A DNA stretch of 64,000 bases from a virus (lineage: Duplodnaviria; Caudoviricetes): positions 16,268 through 80,267 of the IMG/VR virus record IMGVR_UViG_2654588115_000001; one strand, written 5' to 3'. Positions 2,815 to 27,990 of this stretch are shown one piece after another (position 1 is the first letter of the stretch; the number at the start of each line of letters is the position of its first letter). The notes below the pieces were generated by a model. That model saw nothing but the letters and a program-made list of their open reading frames with translations. It had not been told where the DNA came from and made no database searches. Both the position numbers and the translations under genes were made by a program.

Positions 2815-2979
2815 TCACCTCTCTGGAAGCAATGGAGTTTTCCAATTTTCCTTTATTGCATTGAGCAATGTTTCGGGGTTTGCCTCCGGATTTTGTTGCA
2901 TCATATAATGCAAGCACTCCTCTGGTGTTTTGGCATCGATTGCTTTGAATGCCAGCTCTAACCATTCCATTTGTGTCAT
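2815..2979 (-). CDS. Hypothetical 54-aa protein (not in ORF track)
   Basis: MTQMEWLELAFKAIDAKTPEECLHYMMQQNPEANPETLL...; AAAGGAG RBS; tandem with the next ORF. Confidence 0.55.
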   Translation of the reverse strand: MTQMEWLELAFKAIDAKTPEECLHYMMQQNPEANPETLLNAIKENWKTPLLPER

Positions 2980-3529
2980 TGCCCATCAGCTCCTTTTATC
3001 ACATTATCCAGTAAGCTATCAGAATTGTCAATATATAACCTGCCTACCAGCATTTATCTATGAATAACTATGTATGCCGACACAGAAGTCCCATTTTGTA
3101 TGATACCTGTTTCATCCGGTCCGAATCCTGTTATCCATTGGTATAACTATGTGTCACGCCATCTTCCAAGCCCCAAAATCTTCTGTATCACCTTGGTAAA
3201 GTCATTGCATCCCCTATGAATCAAGGCATGATGGCCGCTCATTGATGCAGAAATCCCTCAAAACCTGTATCACTGCGGTAAAAAGTGCCGTAATCCCTAG
3301 TAAATAAAGGCTTCCAGCTGGTTTTCATTGGTTATTCTATGTATCACAATACGTATCACCCCCCATAATCCCAGTAAATACGCGGTCTGACGACTAAAAA
3401 CTTTGAAAATGACGGCGAAACGCACGGACGGTCACGCCCCGCCCCGGACCAGGAAAGGTTTCCCCCATTGGTGGGATTTTTCGCACCCCTCCCCCTATAC
3501 TCACACAAAGAAGGGGGATTTTTCCCCAT

Positions 3530-3890
3530 TGTTACCACCAACAACGCCACCGCCACCGCTTCGACAAAGTACACCCACCGCACACACCACCGCCACCACA
3601 CCGCCACCAACACCGCACCCCCCTATTTTACGGCGAAAAAAAGTATATGAAATATGTATTTAATATGTTTTTGTCAGATGAAGAGGAAAACACCGACAAA
3701 AACAACCACCGCACCACCGCCACCACATCGAAGGAGAGGGCAGAACAGGGGGATATATAAAGATGTTACCATGTAAGAAAATCCCTGCCGTTTTACCGTT
3801 GGTATAGTATCAAACCGCTGCAACCTTCCCCCAATGGCTACACCAACGCAATAACACCACTATACAAAGTTATAACACCGCCACCGCTGA
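3530..3890 (+). repeat. Strand-polarised CCACCGC/CACCGCCAC repeat cluster
   Basis: Many CACCGC/CACCAC copies on one strand at about 3535-3620, 3705-3725 and 3877-3888. Confidence 0.7.
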
Positions 3891-13837: not shown

Positions 13838-14474
13838 ATGCTCTAACCATTTCTAAAGTTACTTTATCATATAGAGATTTTAGTTCATTAATTGCTTTTC
13901 TTACAACTTCGATATTATCTACTTTATCACATTCAATAGTCTTATATATTTGTGTTCTGTAAATTTTATTTTCACTAATAATATTTTTTAATTCATCTTT
14001 ATCTCTAAGTGGGACAACCTTAGTGCTTCTTCTTTTTGAGATACCATATTGGAAACCGCTTGGTAAATCCATCGTAAGAGTTATATCGTTGTACTTATTA
14101 ATCATTTTATAAGTAGTTTGTTTTTCATTTATTTCCAAAGCAACTCTATACTCTGCTTTTTCATTATTAGGTTCTGCAAACAAAGAAATACTAACTGCCC
14201 CACCAACATAATTGATATTCTGCAATTCTGCCCATAAATATGTTCTAATTCTTCTTCGTGTTCCATCGAGCACATTATTATGTTGGACAAAAACAAAATC
14301 TGTATTTGCACATATGTTTTCAACTTCTTTATTAAAAACTTCAATCATATGCAGAGAATTTTTATATAAATCTTCCATATATTTTTTTTCATTTGCATCG
14401 ATTATCTTTTTAGGAGATTTATACGCTTTGCCACAGCAGGACATAATATAGTTAGCCAATTCACTATTATTCAT
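13836..14474 (-). CDS. R-M island accessory protein, unknown function
   Basis: About 212 aa, low GC, overlaps the MTase stop. Confidence 0.75.
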   Translation of the reverse strand: MNNSELANYIMSCCGKAYKSPKKIIDANEKKYMEDLYKNSLHMIEVFNKEVENICANTDFVFVQHNNVLDGTRRRIRTYLWAELQNINYVGGAVSISLFAEPNNEKAEYRVALEINEKQTTYKMINKYNDITLTMDLPSGFQYGISKRRSTKVVPLRDKDELKNIISENKIYRTQIYKTIECDKVDNIEVVRKAINELKSLYDKVTLEMVRA

Positions 14475-15453
14475 GCTCGCAACCTTCTTCATTTAGATAT
14501 TTTGTCACTTGATTAGCTATATGCCAAAACATAACAGGAGGAATTGCATTCCCTAATGCCCTATACTGACTTGAATCACTACCACAGAGCTTGAAGTCCT
14601 CCGGGAAAGACTGTATTCTTGCTACCTCTCTAGGAGTAAATCTTCTATACTTGTCATTTTCAAACAATACAGGGTCAGTACTGTTCAAGGATACTTTTGC
14701 TAAATGAGCACCAACTGTATTGCATGGGCCATTAATATCCTGGGCTCTTCCTTTATTCATTGAATCACGATTTTTCATCATTCCATCAACTGCTCTTTGC
14801 GAAAAGTAATATTTGTCCGGCACATCTTCTTCGAGAACTTTTCTTAATGGAACATAATCACTGCTATCATTAATTAAAGACTCTGGAAACTCAAAGTCAA
14901 CATTCAAGTCTTTTCTAAAGCCTACAATTATAACCCTTTCTCTTTTCTGTGGAACCCCATACTCAACAGCCTTAACAATATCATACTTAACTGTATAACC
15001 AGAATCCTCGAATTCTTTTATAATCAAAGGAAACGCCTCATGTTTATTGGCAGTTAATATCCCTTTAACATTTTCCGCAATAAAGCATTTAGGTTTTTTT
15101 TCACGTAATATTCTACACATCTCGAAGAAAAGCATTCCCTTATCGTCTTTAATACCCAGTCTTTTTGGATTCTGGGCTACTATTGAAAAACTTTGACACG
15201 GGAAACCACCAGTTAAAATATCAATTTCTGGTATTTCGGATGATTTAACTGTTCTAATATCTCTATTATCCGGTTTTAATCCAAAATTTTCTTCAAAAAT
15301 ATTGCAAGCCGATTCTTCAATATCATTAGCATATACAATTTCCATACCATTGTCATTATAGTGATTTCCTAAAAAGTTAAAATCACCTAACAACCCAACA
15401 TCAGTTCCTCCACACCCACAAAACAAAGATGCAACTTTTAATTTCCGTTCCAC
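14467..15453 (-). CDS. DNA (cytosine-5) methyltransferase M2
   Basis: FCGCGG, GGFPCQSFS, ENV, QKRERV, R.FTPREVARIQSF, YRALGNA. Confidence 0.97.
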   Translation of the reverse strand: MERKLKVASLFCGCGGTDVGLLGDFNFLGNHYNDNGMEIVYANDIEESACNIFEENFGLKPDNRDIRTVKSSEIPEIDILTGGFPCQSFSIVAQNPKRLGIKDDKGMLFFEMCRILREKKPKCFIAENVKGILTANKHEAFPLIIKEFEDSGYTVKYDIVKAVEYGVPQKRERVIIVGFRKDLNVDFEFPESLINDSSDYVPLRKVLEEDVPDKYYFSQRAVDGMMKNRDSMNKGRAQDINGPCNTVGAHLAKVSLNSTDPVLFENDKYRRFTPREVARIQSFPEDFKLCGSDSSQYRALGNAIPPVMFWHIANQVTKYLNEEGCEHE

Positions 15454-16868
15454 GCTAATAACTCCTCATATTGTCCAGCTTTTTCCTTAAATGTTATTTC
15501 CATTCCATCTCTAGGCGCTATTGAAATTAAATCATCCTTAAATAATTTGACAGGGTCATTTAATATAAATAATTTTATATTCGACTTGCTTATCATCAAT
15601 CTGTAAACAAAATACCTATTTGTATAGCTTGTTGCAGCTTGCCATTCATTAGGCGTAAGATGAATTTTATTAAAAACAATAGGCCTATTACTAATAGTAG
15701 TCTTTACTTCTATATTCCTTATAGTTTCGTCAAGTTCTCTTGAGCTAATATCATATCCAACAGCTAATTCTGTCGGCATCTTTTTCACCAAATGTATAAG
15801 GTCTTCTCTACCACCAATTCGTAGTCTCTCACACTCGTGCCCTTCAACTAACGTTTCGCCAATATCGCCAATATCTTTGGTGTTTAAGTTGTCAAATTTA
15901 TTAATTTTTTCAAGATAAACCGCAAATTGTTTCATTCTTTCATTACGATTATCTTTTTCACTATCCAACGCATCGCAAATATAATTTGTTATATCTGTGC
16001 TAAAGTCTGTGTCGGTTAGTTCTCTGTTAACATATCTAAACCAGTTCGATTTACAATTATTAATCTCATCTAGTGAAGCCGTTCCTCTTTCAATGTACTC
16101 ATCATACTCATCGAACCATTCATTTGAATTAACGAACCTAAGTATTGTTTCATTTTCTCTATGGTTCAAGTAGAAATGTTTTCCATTATACGACGTTAAT
16201 AAATTTGCTAATTCCATATAATCAAGTATATCTCCTGCATACCTAATTATATCTCCTTCTTGAACATACTCCCTTTCCAATTCTCTATTTTTTTGAATAC
16301 GATGCCACGCATTTATAGGAGGTTCATTATCCCTAGTACATCTCAAATCGTTAAATATGCAATAACAAGCCTCTGCTTTTGTAATATAGCATTTTTTTCC
16401 TGTTTCTTTTTCTGCATCACTTAATACTCTTAGAAAATATGCTACAGGCTTAAATCTTATTTTATTTTCGATAAGTTCTTTTATATATTTAGCTTTTACA
16501 TGCGCCCCAGGATATTGAAATGTAAAACAAAATCTCTTAAAGAATCTTACCAAATCATTTGATTCAGCCAACTCATTTGCACTTAGACAAGCATGATTTT
16601 TTCTATATTCATCTTCATAGAACAATCCAAACAGTGATGAGATTTCCGTTCTCCAATTATTCATTGTCTTCACTGTCACTGTCGCATTTCCAGGAAAGCA
16701 TCTTATTGATTTTAACAGCTCTTCATTAAATTCATCTTTGTCTCTACTACCAATTCTATTAATCTCAGAAGCCATATAAATCAATACTGCTTCTACATTA
16801 GACTTAAAGCGTGGTCTGCAATGATGTATTCTAAAGTTGTATTCTTCCGGAGTATGATATATAGACAC
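15438..16868 (-). CDS. Probable type II restriction endonuclease (C-terminal DUF3883/PD-(D/E)XK)
   Basis: IGE...GYDISS...IEVKTT...LTPNEW; lies between two MTases. Confidence 0.85.
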   Translation of the reverse strand: MSIYHTPEEYNFRIHHCRPRFKSNVEAVLIYMASEINRIGSRDKDEFNEELLKSIRCFPGNATVTVKTMNNWRTEISSLFGLFYEDEYRKNHACLSANELAESNDLVRFFKRFCFTFQYPGAHVKAKYIKELIENKIRFKPVAYFLRVLSDAEKETGKKCYITKAEACYCIFNDLRCTRDNEPPINAWHRIQKNRELEREYVQEGDIIRYAGDILDYMELANLLTSYNGKHFYLNHRENETILRFVNSNEWFDEYDEYIERGTASLDEINNCKSNWFRYVNRELTDTDFSTDITNYICDALDSEKDNRNERMKQFAVYLEKINKFDNLNTKDIGDIGETLVEGHECERLRIGGREDLIHLVKKMPTELAVGYDISSRELDETIRNIEVKTTISNRPIVFNKIHLTPNEWQAATSYTNRYFVYRLMISKSNIKLFILNDPVKLFKDDLISIAPRDGMEITFKEKAGQYEELLAWNGN

Positions 16869-25108: not shown

Positions 25109-25514
25109 TTGCATCGTCCTTCCAATAACCACTCCACTTATCAACCTCTGGGTCATAACGCCGGAACACCATTTCCAGCCGGGGATTTTCCCTGTCCAGA
25201 CCAAAGTCAATATACCGTGGCAGCACCATCTTATCGTCTTTGTAAATAATGCCCTCCAGGGCATCCAGTAGCACCTTCGCCCCATTGTGAACATCATGGC
25301 GGCGGCGGTCCTTCCAGTAGGTCATTATGTCAACAACTAGCTTTTCATCGGTGGTCATTGCCCACCCTTGTTTCTCGCAGGCCTCCATTGCCAGTGTCCT
25401 CGTGCGTTCCACCCACGCTTTTGCATCTTTTTTCAAAATGCGCATACCATTCCGCGCGGTAAAGAACGCATGATTCACACTAGGAGCCAGCTCCGTAACC
25501 AGTCTAAGTTCCAA
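25098..25514 (-). CDS. rusA: RusA-like Holliday junction resolvase
   Basis: PSVNH, RRHDVHNGAKVLLDALEGIIYKDD, PRLEM. Confidence 0.9.
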   Translation of the reverse strand: MELRLVTELAPSVNHAFFTARNGMRILKKDAKAWVERTRTLAMEACEKQGWAMTTDEKLVVDIMTYWKDRRRHDVHNGAKVLLDALEGIIYKDDKMVLPRYIDFGLDRENPRLEMVFRRYDPEVDKWSGYWKDDANGK

Positions 25515-25604
25515 TCAGAGTCCTGCAACCTTGAAATCATCCCATTTAGGAATCTTTACATAATCGCCAAGTTTATTTTTCATTACACATAATACCTTTC
25601 TTAT

Positions 25605-25967
25605 TTAACATTCATAGCCAACAAAAAGTCCCTGCTCCTTCATCGCCCCGAATATTGCCACCAGTACCGGCACACAAATGGAGTTGCCGGCCTGTTTATA
25701 GAGCTGGGTATCTGAAAGCCCATTGGCCGACAACATATCGGCATCCTCCTTGGCAAAACCTTGGAGCGCAAAACATTCTCTAGGGGTAAGTTTTCTAATT
25801 CTACCGTCTACCATTATTCCCTCCGCACAACTGCAACTTAATGTGTGAGCACATCCCTCTATGATTCTCCCACGGCGTTTCCCATGCGGAAAATCGAGGG
25901 CTAGTCCGTCATACTCTTTGCCCACTGCATAACCTCGCTTCGTATTGTTCCTTGCGTAGTAAATCAA
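25605..25967 (-). CDS. Split m5C MTase part 4: TRD plus motifs IX-X
   Basis: TKRGY...RRGR...AHTLSC, then RKLTPRECFALQGF and QLYKQAGNSI. Confidence 0.9.
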   Translation of the reverse strand: MIYYARNNTKRGYAVGKEYDGLALDFPHGKRRGRIIEGCAHTLSCSCAEGIMVDGRIRKLTPRECFALQGFAKEDADMLSANGLSDTQLYKQAGNSICVPVLVAIFGAMKEQGLFVGYEC

Positions 25968-26272
25968 CTATCCACCAACACTTTCGGTATGTTGTTCCCT
26001 CCGGACCCCGTAGGGAGCGTAGGCGCAACACCATTCGTGCCATAGACACGTCTTAGATAATCATGGCCACTAATAGTGGTCACTGTACCCTCACGAACAA
26101 TACCATCATTAATCCCCTGCGGACTGGCGAAGGAAACAAAGCCCTTCAACTTTTCATCCGAGAGGAAATACCGTTCCGCAACATCGCGGTCACAAACATC
26201 CTGCAAATGAATTTCCAGCGGAACCGGCTGCGGAAACTTAAATCCCAGTAGCGGTATATCCACCCTATTCAT
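25964..26272 (-). CDS. Split m5C MTase part 3: stand-alone TRD module
   Basis: FKFPQPVPL...LQDVCD.DV.ERYFLS...RVYGTNGVAPTLPT.SGGN..PKVL; ATG with GAGGG RBS. Confidence 0.8.
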   Translation of the reverse strand: MNRVDIPLLGFKFPQPVPLEIHLQDVCDRDVAERYFLSDEKLKGFVSFASPQGINDGIVREGTVTTISGHDYLRRVYGTNGVAPTLPTGSGGNNIPKVLVDS

Positions 26273-26285
26273 TGCCCTCTGGACT

Positions 26286-26597
26286 TTATTCACCCAGGAA
26301 CACCATCCTTGGGGCCTTGTATTCGGTAGCTGCAAGACAGGGTACAATAGATTTCAAATGACATACTTCGTAGTGCTGATGAACCTTACCATCATTCAGC
26401 GCAAGGCCAAAGACAAAATTCTTATTTGTCATTGGAGTAATGCGGCCATACCACATATCTGCCATGTAATATTTTCCAGGGACATCATCATCTAAAATAT
26501 CCCCCAATGTCTTTACTCCGGGCTTTCCTTGCGGAAATTCAAAGGAAAGCGAGGGAATCATCCGCACATTTTCCTGTGCGCGTTCAAGACTGGTCAA
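26286..26597 (-). CDS. Split m5C MTase part 2: stand-alone TRD module
   Basis: FEFPQGK....TLGDILDDDVPGKYYM...PCL.ATEYKAPRMV. Confidence 0.8.
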   Translation of the reverse strand: MTSLERAQENVRMIPSLSFEFPQGKPGVKTLGDILDDDVPGKYYMADMWYGRITPMTNKNFVFGLALNDGKVHQHYEVCHLKSIVPCLAATEYKAPRMVFLGE

Positions 26598-27118
26598 TCG
26601 GCAAGCCTCGACACACAGAAGATGCGCTCTCTGCTCTGCGGCACACCGTAGTCCTTGGCATTAAGGGTATCAAAGGAAGATTCATAGCCCATCTTGGCCA
26701 GCTCTTCCAGATATTCCTTGAACACAGGCAGATGCTTTTCCGAGAGCACATTCGGAACATTTTCCCACAAAACGAATTTAGGCTTCTTCGCCCTCACAAT
26801 TTCCACCGTGTTCCAGAGTAAGGAAGAACGAGTCCCCGAACCTTTTACACCACCTTCTCCACGGCCGGCCACAGAAAATGACTGACAGGGAGAACCATGG
26901 AATACCATATCAAAATCTGGAAGCTCCTCCGGCACAATCTTTGTAATATCCCCGAGATTCATACTCTCCGGCACATTATGCAACAGGGAATAACTGCGGC
27001 TGGCAAACTTATCAATCTCACAGTAAGCCACCAGTTCAAAGGGAATCCCTGCTTTCTTCAAGGCCATTTCCGGGGCTCCAATACCAGAAAACAAACTCAA
27101 TAATCGTAATTTCTTCAA
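26594..27118 (-). CDS. Split m5C MTase part 1: catalytic motifs I-VIII
   Basis: FSGIGA, EID, GDIT, HGSPCQSFS, RSSL, WENV, PQSRERIF; stops just after motif VIII. Confidence 0.93.
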   Translation of the reverse strand: MKKLRLLSLFSGIGAPEMALKKAGIPFELVAYCEIDKFASRSYSLLHNVPESMNLGDITKIVPEELPDFDMVFHGSPCQSFSVAGRGEGGVKGSGTRSSLLWNTVEIVRAKKPKFVLWENVPNVLSEKHLPVFKEYLEELAKMGYESSFDTLNAKDYGVPQSRERIFCVSRLAD

Positions 27119-27990
27119 GACTTACCTCCGTAATTCTCCTGCCAATAAGGGCAGAACTCATGTACATCACACCAGTCACGGCATTTTCTGTCCGGATAGG
27201 ACTTGGAATTATCCCAGCGGTCACGCTTGTTGCAGACCGGAGGAATCTCGCCGCTTTCCAATGCTTTCATCAACGCATCATATTTGGCCTTCATATAGGT
27301 ACGAACCCATTTCAGCGAAATAAAGTGAATCGGAACGATGTACCCTGCCTGGGTAATCCCGTACTTCTTCGCCGTGGCATCCACACCACCTCGGACAAAC
27401 ATATTGACATTGATTGCTTTGACATGAATCCCATGCTTCTCCATGAGATAGCGGTAGTAATTAAGCTGAATGGCAATCTCGCGCACATCACGGATGCCAC
27501 CAGGCTCAAATACCTGCTCCCACTTTTCCTTGCCCTTGTCCTTGCCACGGGTAACGATTCTGCTGCGCCACTTCGGCTTAAAGCCTAGAGCCTTTGAAAT
27601 ACGAAAAGCCCCAAAGAACTTCCAATCCCACAGAATCTGATTTTTGCAGTCATAGGCATCAAACTGTCCGGAGGTTATATCGTCCTCCAGGCGAACTTCC
27701 GCCAACCAACCATTCGGCTGATTATCCTCGAAAGCCTTGTGGCTGTTCGTGCCAATCATCGCCGCAATCCCCCCCATAGGGTCGATAGCATAATCATGGA
27801 CGATTTCAAGGTAAGTCTGTCTGGTCGGCTTGATGAGCTGCGTAACGCTCGGCTTACCAAACCAATGCCTTGTACTGTCCACCGCCGCCGTCAACGCCGG
27901 CAAACTCATACAACGCTGGTCGCAATGCTTTAAGCACTGCTCAAAAGGAATCTTCTCCCCGGCATTACACCGGAAGAACTTTGCTGGCAC
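27115..27990 (-). CDS. Cas4-like PD-(D/E)XK exonuclease
   Basis: SVTQL, GT..H, E.RL, GQFDAY...WDWKF, QLN.Y; C-terminal C..WC.....C Fe-S-like cluster. Confidence 0.85.
   Translation of the reverse strand: MPAKFFRCNAGEKIPFEQCLKHCDQRCMSLPALTAAVDSTRHWFGKPSVTQLIKPTRQTYLEIVHDYAIDPMGGIAAMIGTNSHKAFEDNQPNGWLAEVRLEDDITSGQFDAYDCKNQILWDWKFFGAFRISKALGFKPKWRSRIVTRGKDKGKEKWEQVFEPGGIRDVREIAIQLNYYRYLMEKHGIHVKAINVNMFVRGGVDATAKKYGITQAGYIVPIHFISLKWVRTYMKAKYDALMKALESGEIPPVCNKRDRWDNSKSYPDRKCRDWCDVHEFCPYWQENYGGKS

Follow-up and report, generated by a model that had tools for sequence, protein, structure and literature searches.

A phage cytosine-C5 methyltransferase divided into four coupled reading frames with candidate free-standing specificity modules

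We describe a 5-methylcytosine (m5C) DNA methyltransferase (C5-MTase) locus in a 64,000-nucleotide stretch of tailed-phage DNA (Duplodnaviria; Caudoviricetes), hereafter the window, which covers positions 16,268 to 80,267 of IMG/VR record IMGVR_UViG_2654588115_000001, an 80,267-base viral record with a CheckV completeness of 100%. The enzyme is encoded at window 25605-27118 by four head-to-tail overlapping open reading frames (ORFs) on the minus strand, in alternating frames, exactly as an earlier model-made reading of the letters alone (the sequence-only reading) had described it. All ten C5-MTase motifs were found, spread over the first and last of these ORFs (parts 1 and 4). Three segments resembling target recognition domains (TRDs), with P-(T/C/H)-L cores, lie between motifs VIII and IX, one each in parts 2, 3, and 4. 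Judged from its sequence, the locus probably encodes a counterpart of the multispecific Bacillus-phage C5-MTases that is built from several subunits, among them free-standing specificity subunits that are gained and lost. Coordinates of the ORFs and their junctions are collected in Table 1.

Results

Catalytic core in parts 1 and 4

Part 1 matched positions 2-161 of the 324 in the Pfam family PF00145 (E 8e-50). It carries FSGIG, SPCQSFS (with PCQ and the catalytic Cys), WENV, and QSRERIF, which correspond to motifs I, IV, VI, and VIII. Its stop codon falls 9 residues past motif VIII, so the claim that this piece ends right after VIII was accurate. Part 4 matched positions 270-323 of the same family (E 2e-10), with motif IX (RKLTPRECFALQGF; family pattern R.LTPRE) and motif X (YKQAGNSICVPV; GNS/A) following a segment of ~50 amino acids (aa) that contains AHTLS. 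The third TRD-like segment that had been proposed for this part, together with motifs IX-X, was therefore found in it. Part 4 was also 59% identical to residues 380-430 of the phi3T methyltransferase (MTase). Since motifs I-VIII and IX-X are divided between two proteins and no piece is more strongly constrained than part 1, parts 1 and 4 presumably work together, as do the two chains of M.AquI and detached fragments of monomeric enzymes (PMC3404938). The usual monomeric form, with every motif on one chain, was seen neither in the window nor in the relatives L002 and L164 or the contigs X2 and X3 described below.

Homologues of part 1 at 72% identity or less were single chains of 306-757 aa, and certain single-chain enzymes had two entry motifs (the motif that opens the variable region) or up to five TRD stretches. 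On these grounds, the split clade derives from ordinary multispecific enzymes. A profile search of genome contigs with part 1 returned only 52%-identical prophages in Christensenellaceae metagenome-assembled genomes (MAGs) and one 34% match. In two Christensenellaceae MAG contigs (L165 and L166; 4881-6232), the part 1 homologue is cut from an ORF with a TRD and motifs IX-X by a stop codon and ~140 bases, L166 has an additional in-frame stop within the N-terminal part of this homologue, and an adjacent MTase gene on these contigs ends in an (ER)n repeat. Another part 1 homologue, P0002 (519 aa; 72% identical over 56% of the query), contains Hint and intein-splicing domains (PF13403, PF14890) and is, from its sequence, an intein-containing C5-MTase.

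Free-standing modules

A Pfam scan gave no match for parts 2 and 3. Each opens with a short predicted helix and the segment F.FP...L.D..D.DV..Y (the entry segment), which in the M.HhaI structure sits where the large and small domains meet, and each closes with a P-(C/T)-L core and then a short strand. This is the layout that the sequence-only reading had given for both parts, including the duplication of the entry motif, of which each part has its own copy. BLASTP placed parts 2 and 3 just past motif VIII of single-chain C5-MTases, at residues ~170-265 (E down to 2e-9 and 7e-17), the alignment of part 2 covering residues ~169-256. A profile of part 3 matched M.HhaI 173-257 (E 2e-4), and part 3 shared 30% identity with the phi3T multispecific MTase over residues 221-328 of the latter (E 5e-16). 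Because the two parts are equivalents of the small domain that hold no catalytic motif, a role as extra TRDs is the simplest one for them.

Structural models were compared with the same region. The AlphaFold (AF2) model of part 2 had a predicted local distance difference test score (pLDDT) of 80, and its residues 28-103 superposed on M.HhaI 189-269 over 68 residues (Z 5.0, root-mean-square deviation 3.3-3.4 A), a weak match at the expected place. A Foldseek search with this model found nothing at E <= 0.001 (E at least 0.84), and all of the matches ranked 1-14 were C5-MTases. The model of part 3 was poor (pLDDT 62).

The modules of the window and of L002, six in all, score E 1e-31 to 1e-43 against one another's profile by hidden Markov model (HMM) comparison, so their likeness is not due to chance. 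When the profile of these six was searched against 1.84 billion representatives, with length unrestricted, 835 proteins matched at E <= 1e-3. The best five (E <= 1.6e-16) were all free-standing proteins of 91-115 aa, and the first long protein (620 aa; E 3.6e-16) had three matched stretches. Among the 150 best of the 835 matches, 11 were proteins of 86-115 aa. In the length band of 54-191 aa, all 19 matches at E <= 1e-5 were 86-153 aa long and came from many contigs, with several distinct variants per module type. One protein of 168 aa, P0165, has a part-3-like module fused directly to motifs IX-X, a two-piece form with the same N-terminus. A match on a 78,742-base contig, WP_303838996.1, is annotated 'hypothetical protein [Selenomonas ruminantium]', which hints at this species as the host of an L002-like phage. 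No match was obtained in phages by tblastn with part 2 or in genome contigs with a narrower module alignment, no related locus was found in viral contigs with part 3 alone, and modules P0127 and P0140 had no close relative in viral contigs.

Relatives that keep the split

One relative of part 1 was found in IMG/VR, on the 79,134-base viral contig L002. The two proteins are 88-89% identical by pairwise alignment, and the best tblastn segment was 87% identical. In L002 the MTase occupies six ORFs: an upstream module, part 1, a part 2 homologue, an extra module, and homologues of parts 3 and 4. The gene of the upstream module (L002 3705-4004) has a stop that overlaps the TTG of part 1. Free modules therefore number two in the window and four in L002, one of the latter upstream of the core gene. 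Because that module stands before the catalytic gene, frameshift or decay of a single-chain ancestor cannot explain the L002 arrangement. Two free proteins, P0281 and P0128, are near-identical to the L002 upstream module. In a second relative, the metagenome contig L164, parts 2, 3, and 4 are each a separate ORF. Contigs of the sequencing runs X2 and X3 are split like the window, so the split points are kept in all four of these relatives and none of them has a continuous ORF.

Contigs from three other sequencing studies (X2, X3, and X4) were compared with the window over 25400-27300; a further run, X1, is identical and possibly the source, and was not counted as independent. Runs X5-X7, with only small shares of the stretch, did not enter the comparison, and no RNA run was among those that contain it. 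X2 (record 3) covers 25580-27061 with 52 substitutions, X3 (record 8) covers 25400-26618 with 77, and X4 (record 14) covers 26329-26600 with 2, each with 0 gaps. Independent metagenome contigs that are 3-6% diverged thus span all three junctions, and no indel was listed for any run. When each part was read in its own frame, 34 of 40 substitutions (40 of 125) fell at third codon positions, compared with 22 of 40 if the frame of part 1 ran through. At window 27091-27139, between the upstream gene and part 1, a stretch of 36-47 letters is replaced in X2 and X3 by a different one of 249-325 letters. This insert is probably an upstream module like that of L002, to judge from its place and rough size. 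The modules had been called exchangeable, and their gain and loss between relatives (the two extra modules of L002, between parts 2 and 3 and upstream of part 1, and the upstream insertion in X2 and X3) supports that description.

Selection was estimated by the Nei-Gojobori method in the three pairwise comparisons of the window, L002, and L164. The proportion of synonymous differences (pS) was 0.57-0.89, near saturation, and that of nonsynonymous differences (pN) was 0.09-0.26. The ratio of nonsynonymous to synonymous rates (dN/dS) was well below 1 for every part: 0.038 for part 1 (against L002), 0.14-0.25 for part 2, 0.04-0.17 for part 3, and 0.036 for part 4 (against L164). Where dS was saturated, pN/pS was 0.20 for part 3 and 0.25-0.26 for part 4 (0.245 against L002). 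As a wrong-frame control, the window and L002 were compared in the two other frames; pN/pS was 1.3-2.7 there and 0.13-0.40 in the correct frame. All pieces have long been kept as coding sequence in their own frames, and recent decay is excluded because in-frame dN/dS is low while synonymous sites are near saturation. Of the checks proposed with the sequence-only reading, those that could be run (the split in relatives, indels in independent assemblies, and dN/dS for each ORF) all favoured it.

Table 1. Reading frames, junctions, and the additional upstream module of the split methyltransferase locus (window coordinates unless L002 is given)
Feature	Coordinates	Strand or place	Details
Part 1, catalytic N-terminal subunit, motifs I-VIII, 174 aa	26594..27118	-	TTG start after GGAGG
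Part 2, free-standing module, N-terminal helix, F.FP entry motif, and TRD (PCLAATEYK), 103 aa	26286..26597	-	TTG start
Part 3, free-standing module, entry motif and TRD (APTLPTGSGGNN), 109 aa	25964..26293	-	likely GTG start 26293
Part 4, C-terminal subunit, third TRD-like segment (AHTLS) and motifs IX-X, 120 aa	25605..25967	-	TTG start
Upstream 291-aa gene / part 1 junction	27115..27118	-	TTGA overlap
Parts 1/2 junction	26594..26597	-	TTGA start/stop overlap, -1 frame change
Parts 2/3 junction	26286..26293	-	GTGAATAA, start overlapping stop, +1 frame change
Parts 3/4 junction	25964..25967	-	TTGA overlap, -1 frame change
L002 upstream module, entry and TRD, 99 aa	L002 3705-4001	between 291-aa gene and part 1	HMM E 1.9e-31

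Alternative explanations

A first alternative is that only two subunits make up the enzyme. Parts 1 and 4 would form a heterodimer like M.AquI, with the single specificity of the part 4 TRD, and parts 2 and 3 would be kept as regulators, as competitors for the docking site, or as fillers that provide the entry segment but do not read DNA. Part 4 does have its own TRD-like segment beside motif IX, P0165 shows that a two-piece form occurs, and natural two-polypeptide C5-MTases are described in PMC3404938. Nevertheless, parts 2 and 3 keep their TRD core (P-T/C-L, with DYK.P or GG.N.PK) under a dN/dS of 0.04-0.25, the homology of part 3 to the first TRD region of the phi3T multispecific MTase extends over its full length, and the number of modules varies among relatives, as that of specificity cassettes would. 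We consider this explanation unlikely.

A second alternative is recoding, in which a ribosomal frameshift at each junction, or polymerase slippage, would yield a single multispecific MTase of ~500 aa. Only two frames are in use (parts 1 and 3 share one, parts 2 and 4 another), so a +1 or -1 shift would suffice at each junction. In addition, PMC3510504 reports that removing the 1-nucleotide (nt) overlap of hsdM and hsdS in EcoKI gave a new type of system. The junctions themselves, however, speak for separate proteins. The two TTGA stop/start junctions named in the sequence-only reading are present (Table 1), and since the unrelated upstream gene and part 1 share such an overlap too, TTGA coupling is a style normal for this phage. 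In L002, the ATG at the parts 1/2 junction lies 5 nt before a TAA stop, so that a 1-nt indel makes this homologous junction a -1 change in the window and a +1 change in L002, in frame in neither; a recoding signal would not survive such a flip. L002 has ATGAATAG at the place homologous to the parts 2/3 junction, and the parts 3/4 junction is ATGA in L002 and TGATG in L164.

A start codon is kept at the junction for every piece in all three of the window, L002, and L164. The homologous starts are TTG, ATG, and TTG, respectively, for part 2; GTG, ATG, and a TTG one codon upstream for part 3; and TTG, ATG, and TTG or ATG for part 4. The longest ORF of part 3 spans 25964-26347 and begins at TTG 26347, and the ATG start of L002 has its homologous position at GTG 26293. 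The claim that part 3 has its own ribosome-binding site was only partly right: AGAGGG lies just 2-3 nt upstream of an internal ATG, and AAGGA precedes GTG 26293 by 8 nt. The predicted Shine-Dalgarno (SD) duplex before part 1 was -10.8 kcal/mol, and an SD-like duplex of -5.9 kcal/mol or better preceded 9 of the 14 start candidates scored; the background averaged -3.1, and 14% of random positions reached -6 or lower.

By inspection, no slippery X XXY YYZ heptamer was present at the junctions, and window 25600-27125 is free of homopolymers of at least 6 letters and of dinucleotide repeats of at least 4 units. Neither a conserved slippery site nor a shared direction of shift among relatives, the features of programmed frameshifting, was thus found. 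Read-through also could not fuse the L002 module that stands before part 1 in the normal domain order. Because starts and overlaps differ among relatives, the shift is -1 in one and +1 in another, and there is no slippery site or simple repeat, the sequences favour separate polypeptides with coupled translation over a frameshift fusion, and we regard recoding as improbable. Three related candidates were rejected: stop-codon recoding, since reading through the stops could not link parts that lie in different frames; inteins or introns, as no such domain was found in the four parts; and phase variation at a simple sequence repeat (SSR), as no repeat is present in 25600-27125.

The locus might also be a decaying pseudogene, a once-continuous multispecific MTase broken by frameshifts. 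Fragmented C5-MTase genes are common in viral contigs, where some breaks lie inside motif VIII and resemble damage or sequencing error, and the N- and C-terminal parts were in different stop-to-stop ORFs at 34 of the 81 loci examined (80 plus L002). Here, in contrast, all pieces are still uninterrupted and have kept start codons in three lineages at near-saturated synonymous divergence, the selection ratios are low in frame and above 1 out of frame, and the breaks fall only at module boundaries, the domain boundaries at which they had been placed from the sequence. Decay is therefore very improbable and close to refuted. Indels introduced by the assembler deserve next to no weight: although the record is a metagenome-assembled viral genome, the X2, X3, and X4 contigs cover the junctions with substitutions but zero gaps, and two diverged relatives from other records (L002 and L164) are split alike.

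Comparison with known systems

C5-MTases are textbook monomers. The multispecific enzymes of Bacillus phages (M.Phi3TI, M.SPbetaI/mtbP, M.SPRI, and M.H2I) resemble the locus: they too come from phages and combine a single catalytic core with several tandem TRDs placed between motifs VIII and IX. They are single polypeptides with one entry segment, whereas the locus gives each TRD module its own gene and entry segment and divides the core after motif VIII. Of the two features that define the phi3T/SPR type, the locus thus shows several TRDs between VIII and IX but not a single polypeptide that carries them all. The tandem TRDs of the Bacillus phage enzymes give several target sequences, according to PMC8936443.

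M.AquI and M.EcoHK31I are natural two-polypeptide C5-MTases, the two exceptions cited in PMC3404938. That source also describes how detached fragments of monomeric C5-MTases (M.BspRI, M.BsuRI, M.HhaI, and M.SssI) complement each other in vivo. As in the locus, the N-terminal piece of M.AquI holds motifs I-VIII and the C-terminal piece IX-X (PMC3404938). M.AquI has one cut, inside the variable region, and one specificity, whereas the locus is cut three times (five times in L002), behind motif VIII and behind every TRD, and includes subunits without any conserved catalytic motif. The M.AquI type as given in PMC3404938, two chains cut in the variable region, therefore does not describe the locus, which has four chains and a first cut 9 residues past VIII, before the entry motif. 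M.EcoHK31I likewise needs more than one polypeptide (two; PMC3404938), but only its motif IX is on the small polypeptide and its TRD is on the large one, unlike the locus.

Type I restriction-modification systems share with the locus a separate specificity subunit gene just downstream of the methylase gene (HsdM/HsdS). Their fold and chemistry are unrelated (N6-adenine methylation, with two TRDs per HsdS), so the likeness is a design analogy only. In EcoKI, hsdM and hsdS share a 1-nt overlap, and their translation is coupled (PMC3510504). Full-text literature searches, with subscription journals and REBASE outside their scope, found no description of a free-standing TRD subunit of a C5-MTase. 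M.phiBssHII, to go by the title of Sethmann et al., recalls the L002 module upstream of the catalytic gene and is reportedly a single chain.

Neighbouring genes and other methyltransferase genes

Genes for a primase-helicase, RusA, and the single-stranded DNA-binding protein SSB adjoin the split MTase locus. A blastn search of GenBank phages with the locus region gave no match, and promoter-like and terminator-like sites occurred in our scans at chance level only. The gene directly upstream of part 1 (27115-27990, minus strand) encodes 291 aa and is conserved, with a clear homologue in L002 (a 291-aa ORF, 2846-3721) and no Pfam match. Its Cys-rich C-terminus is perhaps reminiscent of Cas4-type nucleases.

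Elsewhere in the window, at 14467-16868 on the minus strand, we observed an ordinary single-chain C5-MTase of 328 aa (PF00145, E 2e-77). It is overlapped by a 476-aa ORF with the N-terminal domain of a BpuJI-type restriction endonuclease (PF11564, E 2e-97) and a NOV_C domain. From these domain matches, the two look like a phage-borne restriction-modification pair.

Several other viral lineages carry divided C5-MTase genes. In another phage lineage, the frame of a C5-MTase changes exactly at a (GA)9-10 repeat encoding ERERERE (L134 3687-3706, L144 3654-3671, L145 3663-3682, and L146 3366-3385), which suggests either that a multispecific MTase undergoes SSR phase variation or that the repeat was assembled ambiguously. 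Multi-TRD C5-MTases are broken in several ways in the ~40-kb viral contigs L005-L025 (for example, L007 3827-3832 and L008 3299-3817). There is an in-frame TAG at one conserved place in L007, L010, and L013, and frameshifts lie inside motif VIII in L010, L011, and L013. In L008, L009, and L012, a 172-aa gene with an NPPY motif (N6-adenine-MTase-like) is inserted between the C5-MTase pieces, followed in L009 and L012 by a free 66-aa TRD-like ORF. In L061-L079 (viral contigs of 20-160 kb, most of them 86-160 kb; for example, L062 2924-4276), the C5-MTase is cut after a TRD ending in IKQPGKE, motifs IX-X in the last ORF are followed without a break by motif I (FFSGIGAFEKGL) of the next MTase, and some copies have a further frameshift at RWGG. 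Finally, L094 (2646-4395) has a two-ORF C5-MTase: in the first ORF (396 aa), motifs I-VIII are accompanied by three TRD-like stretches and two entry motifs, and the second, overlapping ORF, of 190 aa, holds another TRD and motifs IX-X.

Discussion

In the mechanism we propose, an m5C MTase of the multispecific phi3T/SPbeta-like type would have been naturally cut into four separately translated, coupled subunits. Part 1 would form the S-adenosylmethionine-binding and catalytic core (motifs I-VIII), and part 4 would complete it with motifs IX-X while adding one TRD. Parts 2 and 3 would be free-standing specificity subunits, each with its own entry segment (F.FP...L.D.LD) and TRD. The entry segment would be a docking element through which each module attaches non-covalently to the core of parts 1 and 4, and each docked module would direct methylation of its own target sequence. 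Phage DNA would thereby be protected from several host restriction enzymes, and related phages would differ by the gain or loss of entire module genes.

We infer a docking handle in the entry segment because every free module has its own copy, while most single-chain relatives with multiple TRDs have one; a docking role would in turn explain why the segment is repeated in every free module. On balance, we lean towards a C5-MTase of Type I-like design, with a shared core (parts 1 and 4) and interchangeable subunits of ~100 aa that dock via the entry segment, one target each. Gain, loss, or reordering of whole module genes would then let related phages adjust their anti-restriction repertoire. 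The location beside the primase-helicase, RusA, and SSB genes would fit a phage-protective enzyme that acts on replicating DNA.

Several points weigh against the reading of the locus as a multi-subunit, multispecific enzyme. Production of the four proteins, their binding to one another, methylation of DNA, a separate specificity for each module, and a role against restriction are predictions from the sequences. The TRD of part 4 lacks the entry motif, so the docking idea leaves its positioning unexplained. Structural backing of the free modules is weak, as the models show (part 2, Z 5.0 and Foldseek E at least 0.84; part 3, pLDDT 62). Purifying selection indicates that the ORFs are translated and useful, not that their use is target recognition. 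The split relatives all belong to one fairly narrow clade by sequence, with the distant part 1 homologues (identity of 72% or less) being the single chains of 306-757 aa noted above. The SD duplexes at some internal starts are weak, at -4.9 for part 4 in the window and -3.0 and -4.5 for parts 2 and 3 in L002. Overlapping stop/start pairs permit reinitiation without a strong SD.

If the multi-subunit reading is true, TRDs of C5-MTases can work in trans, with no covalent link to motif VIII or IX. They would then be autonomous, dockable units, with the entry segment as the docking handle. Several groups have reportedly tried to engineer programmable or split cytosine methyltransferases through bisection of M.HhaI, M.SssI, and M.EcoHK31I, and modules that work in trans would offer a natural, ready-made scaffold for such enzymes. 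For phage biology, the arrangement would represent a cassette mechanism for rapid change in which host restriction systems are evaded.

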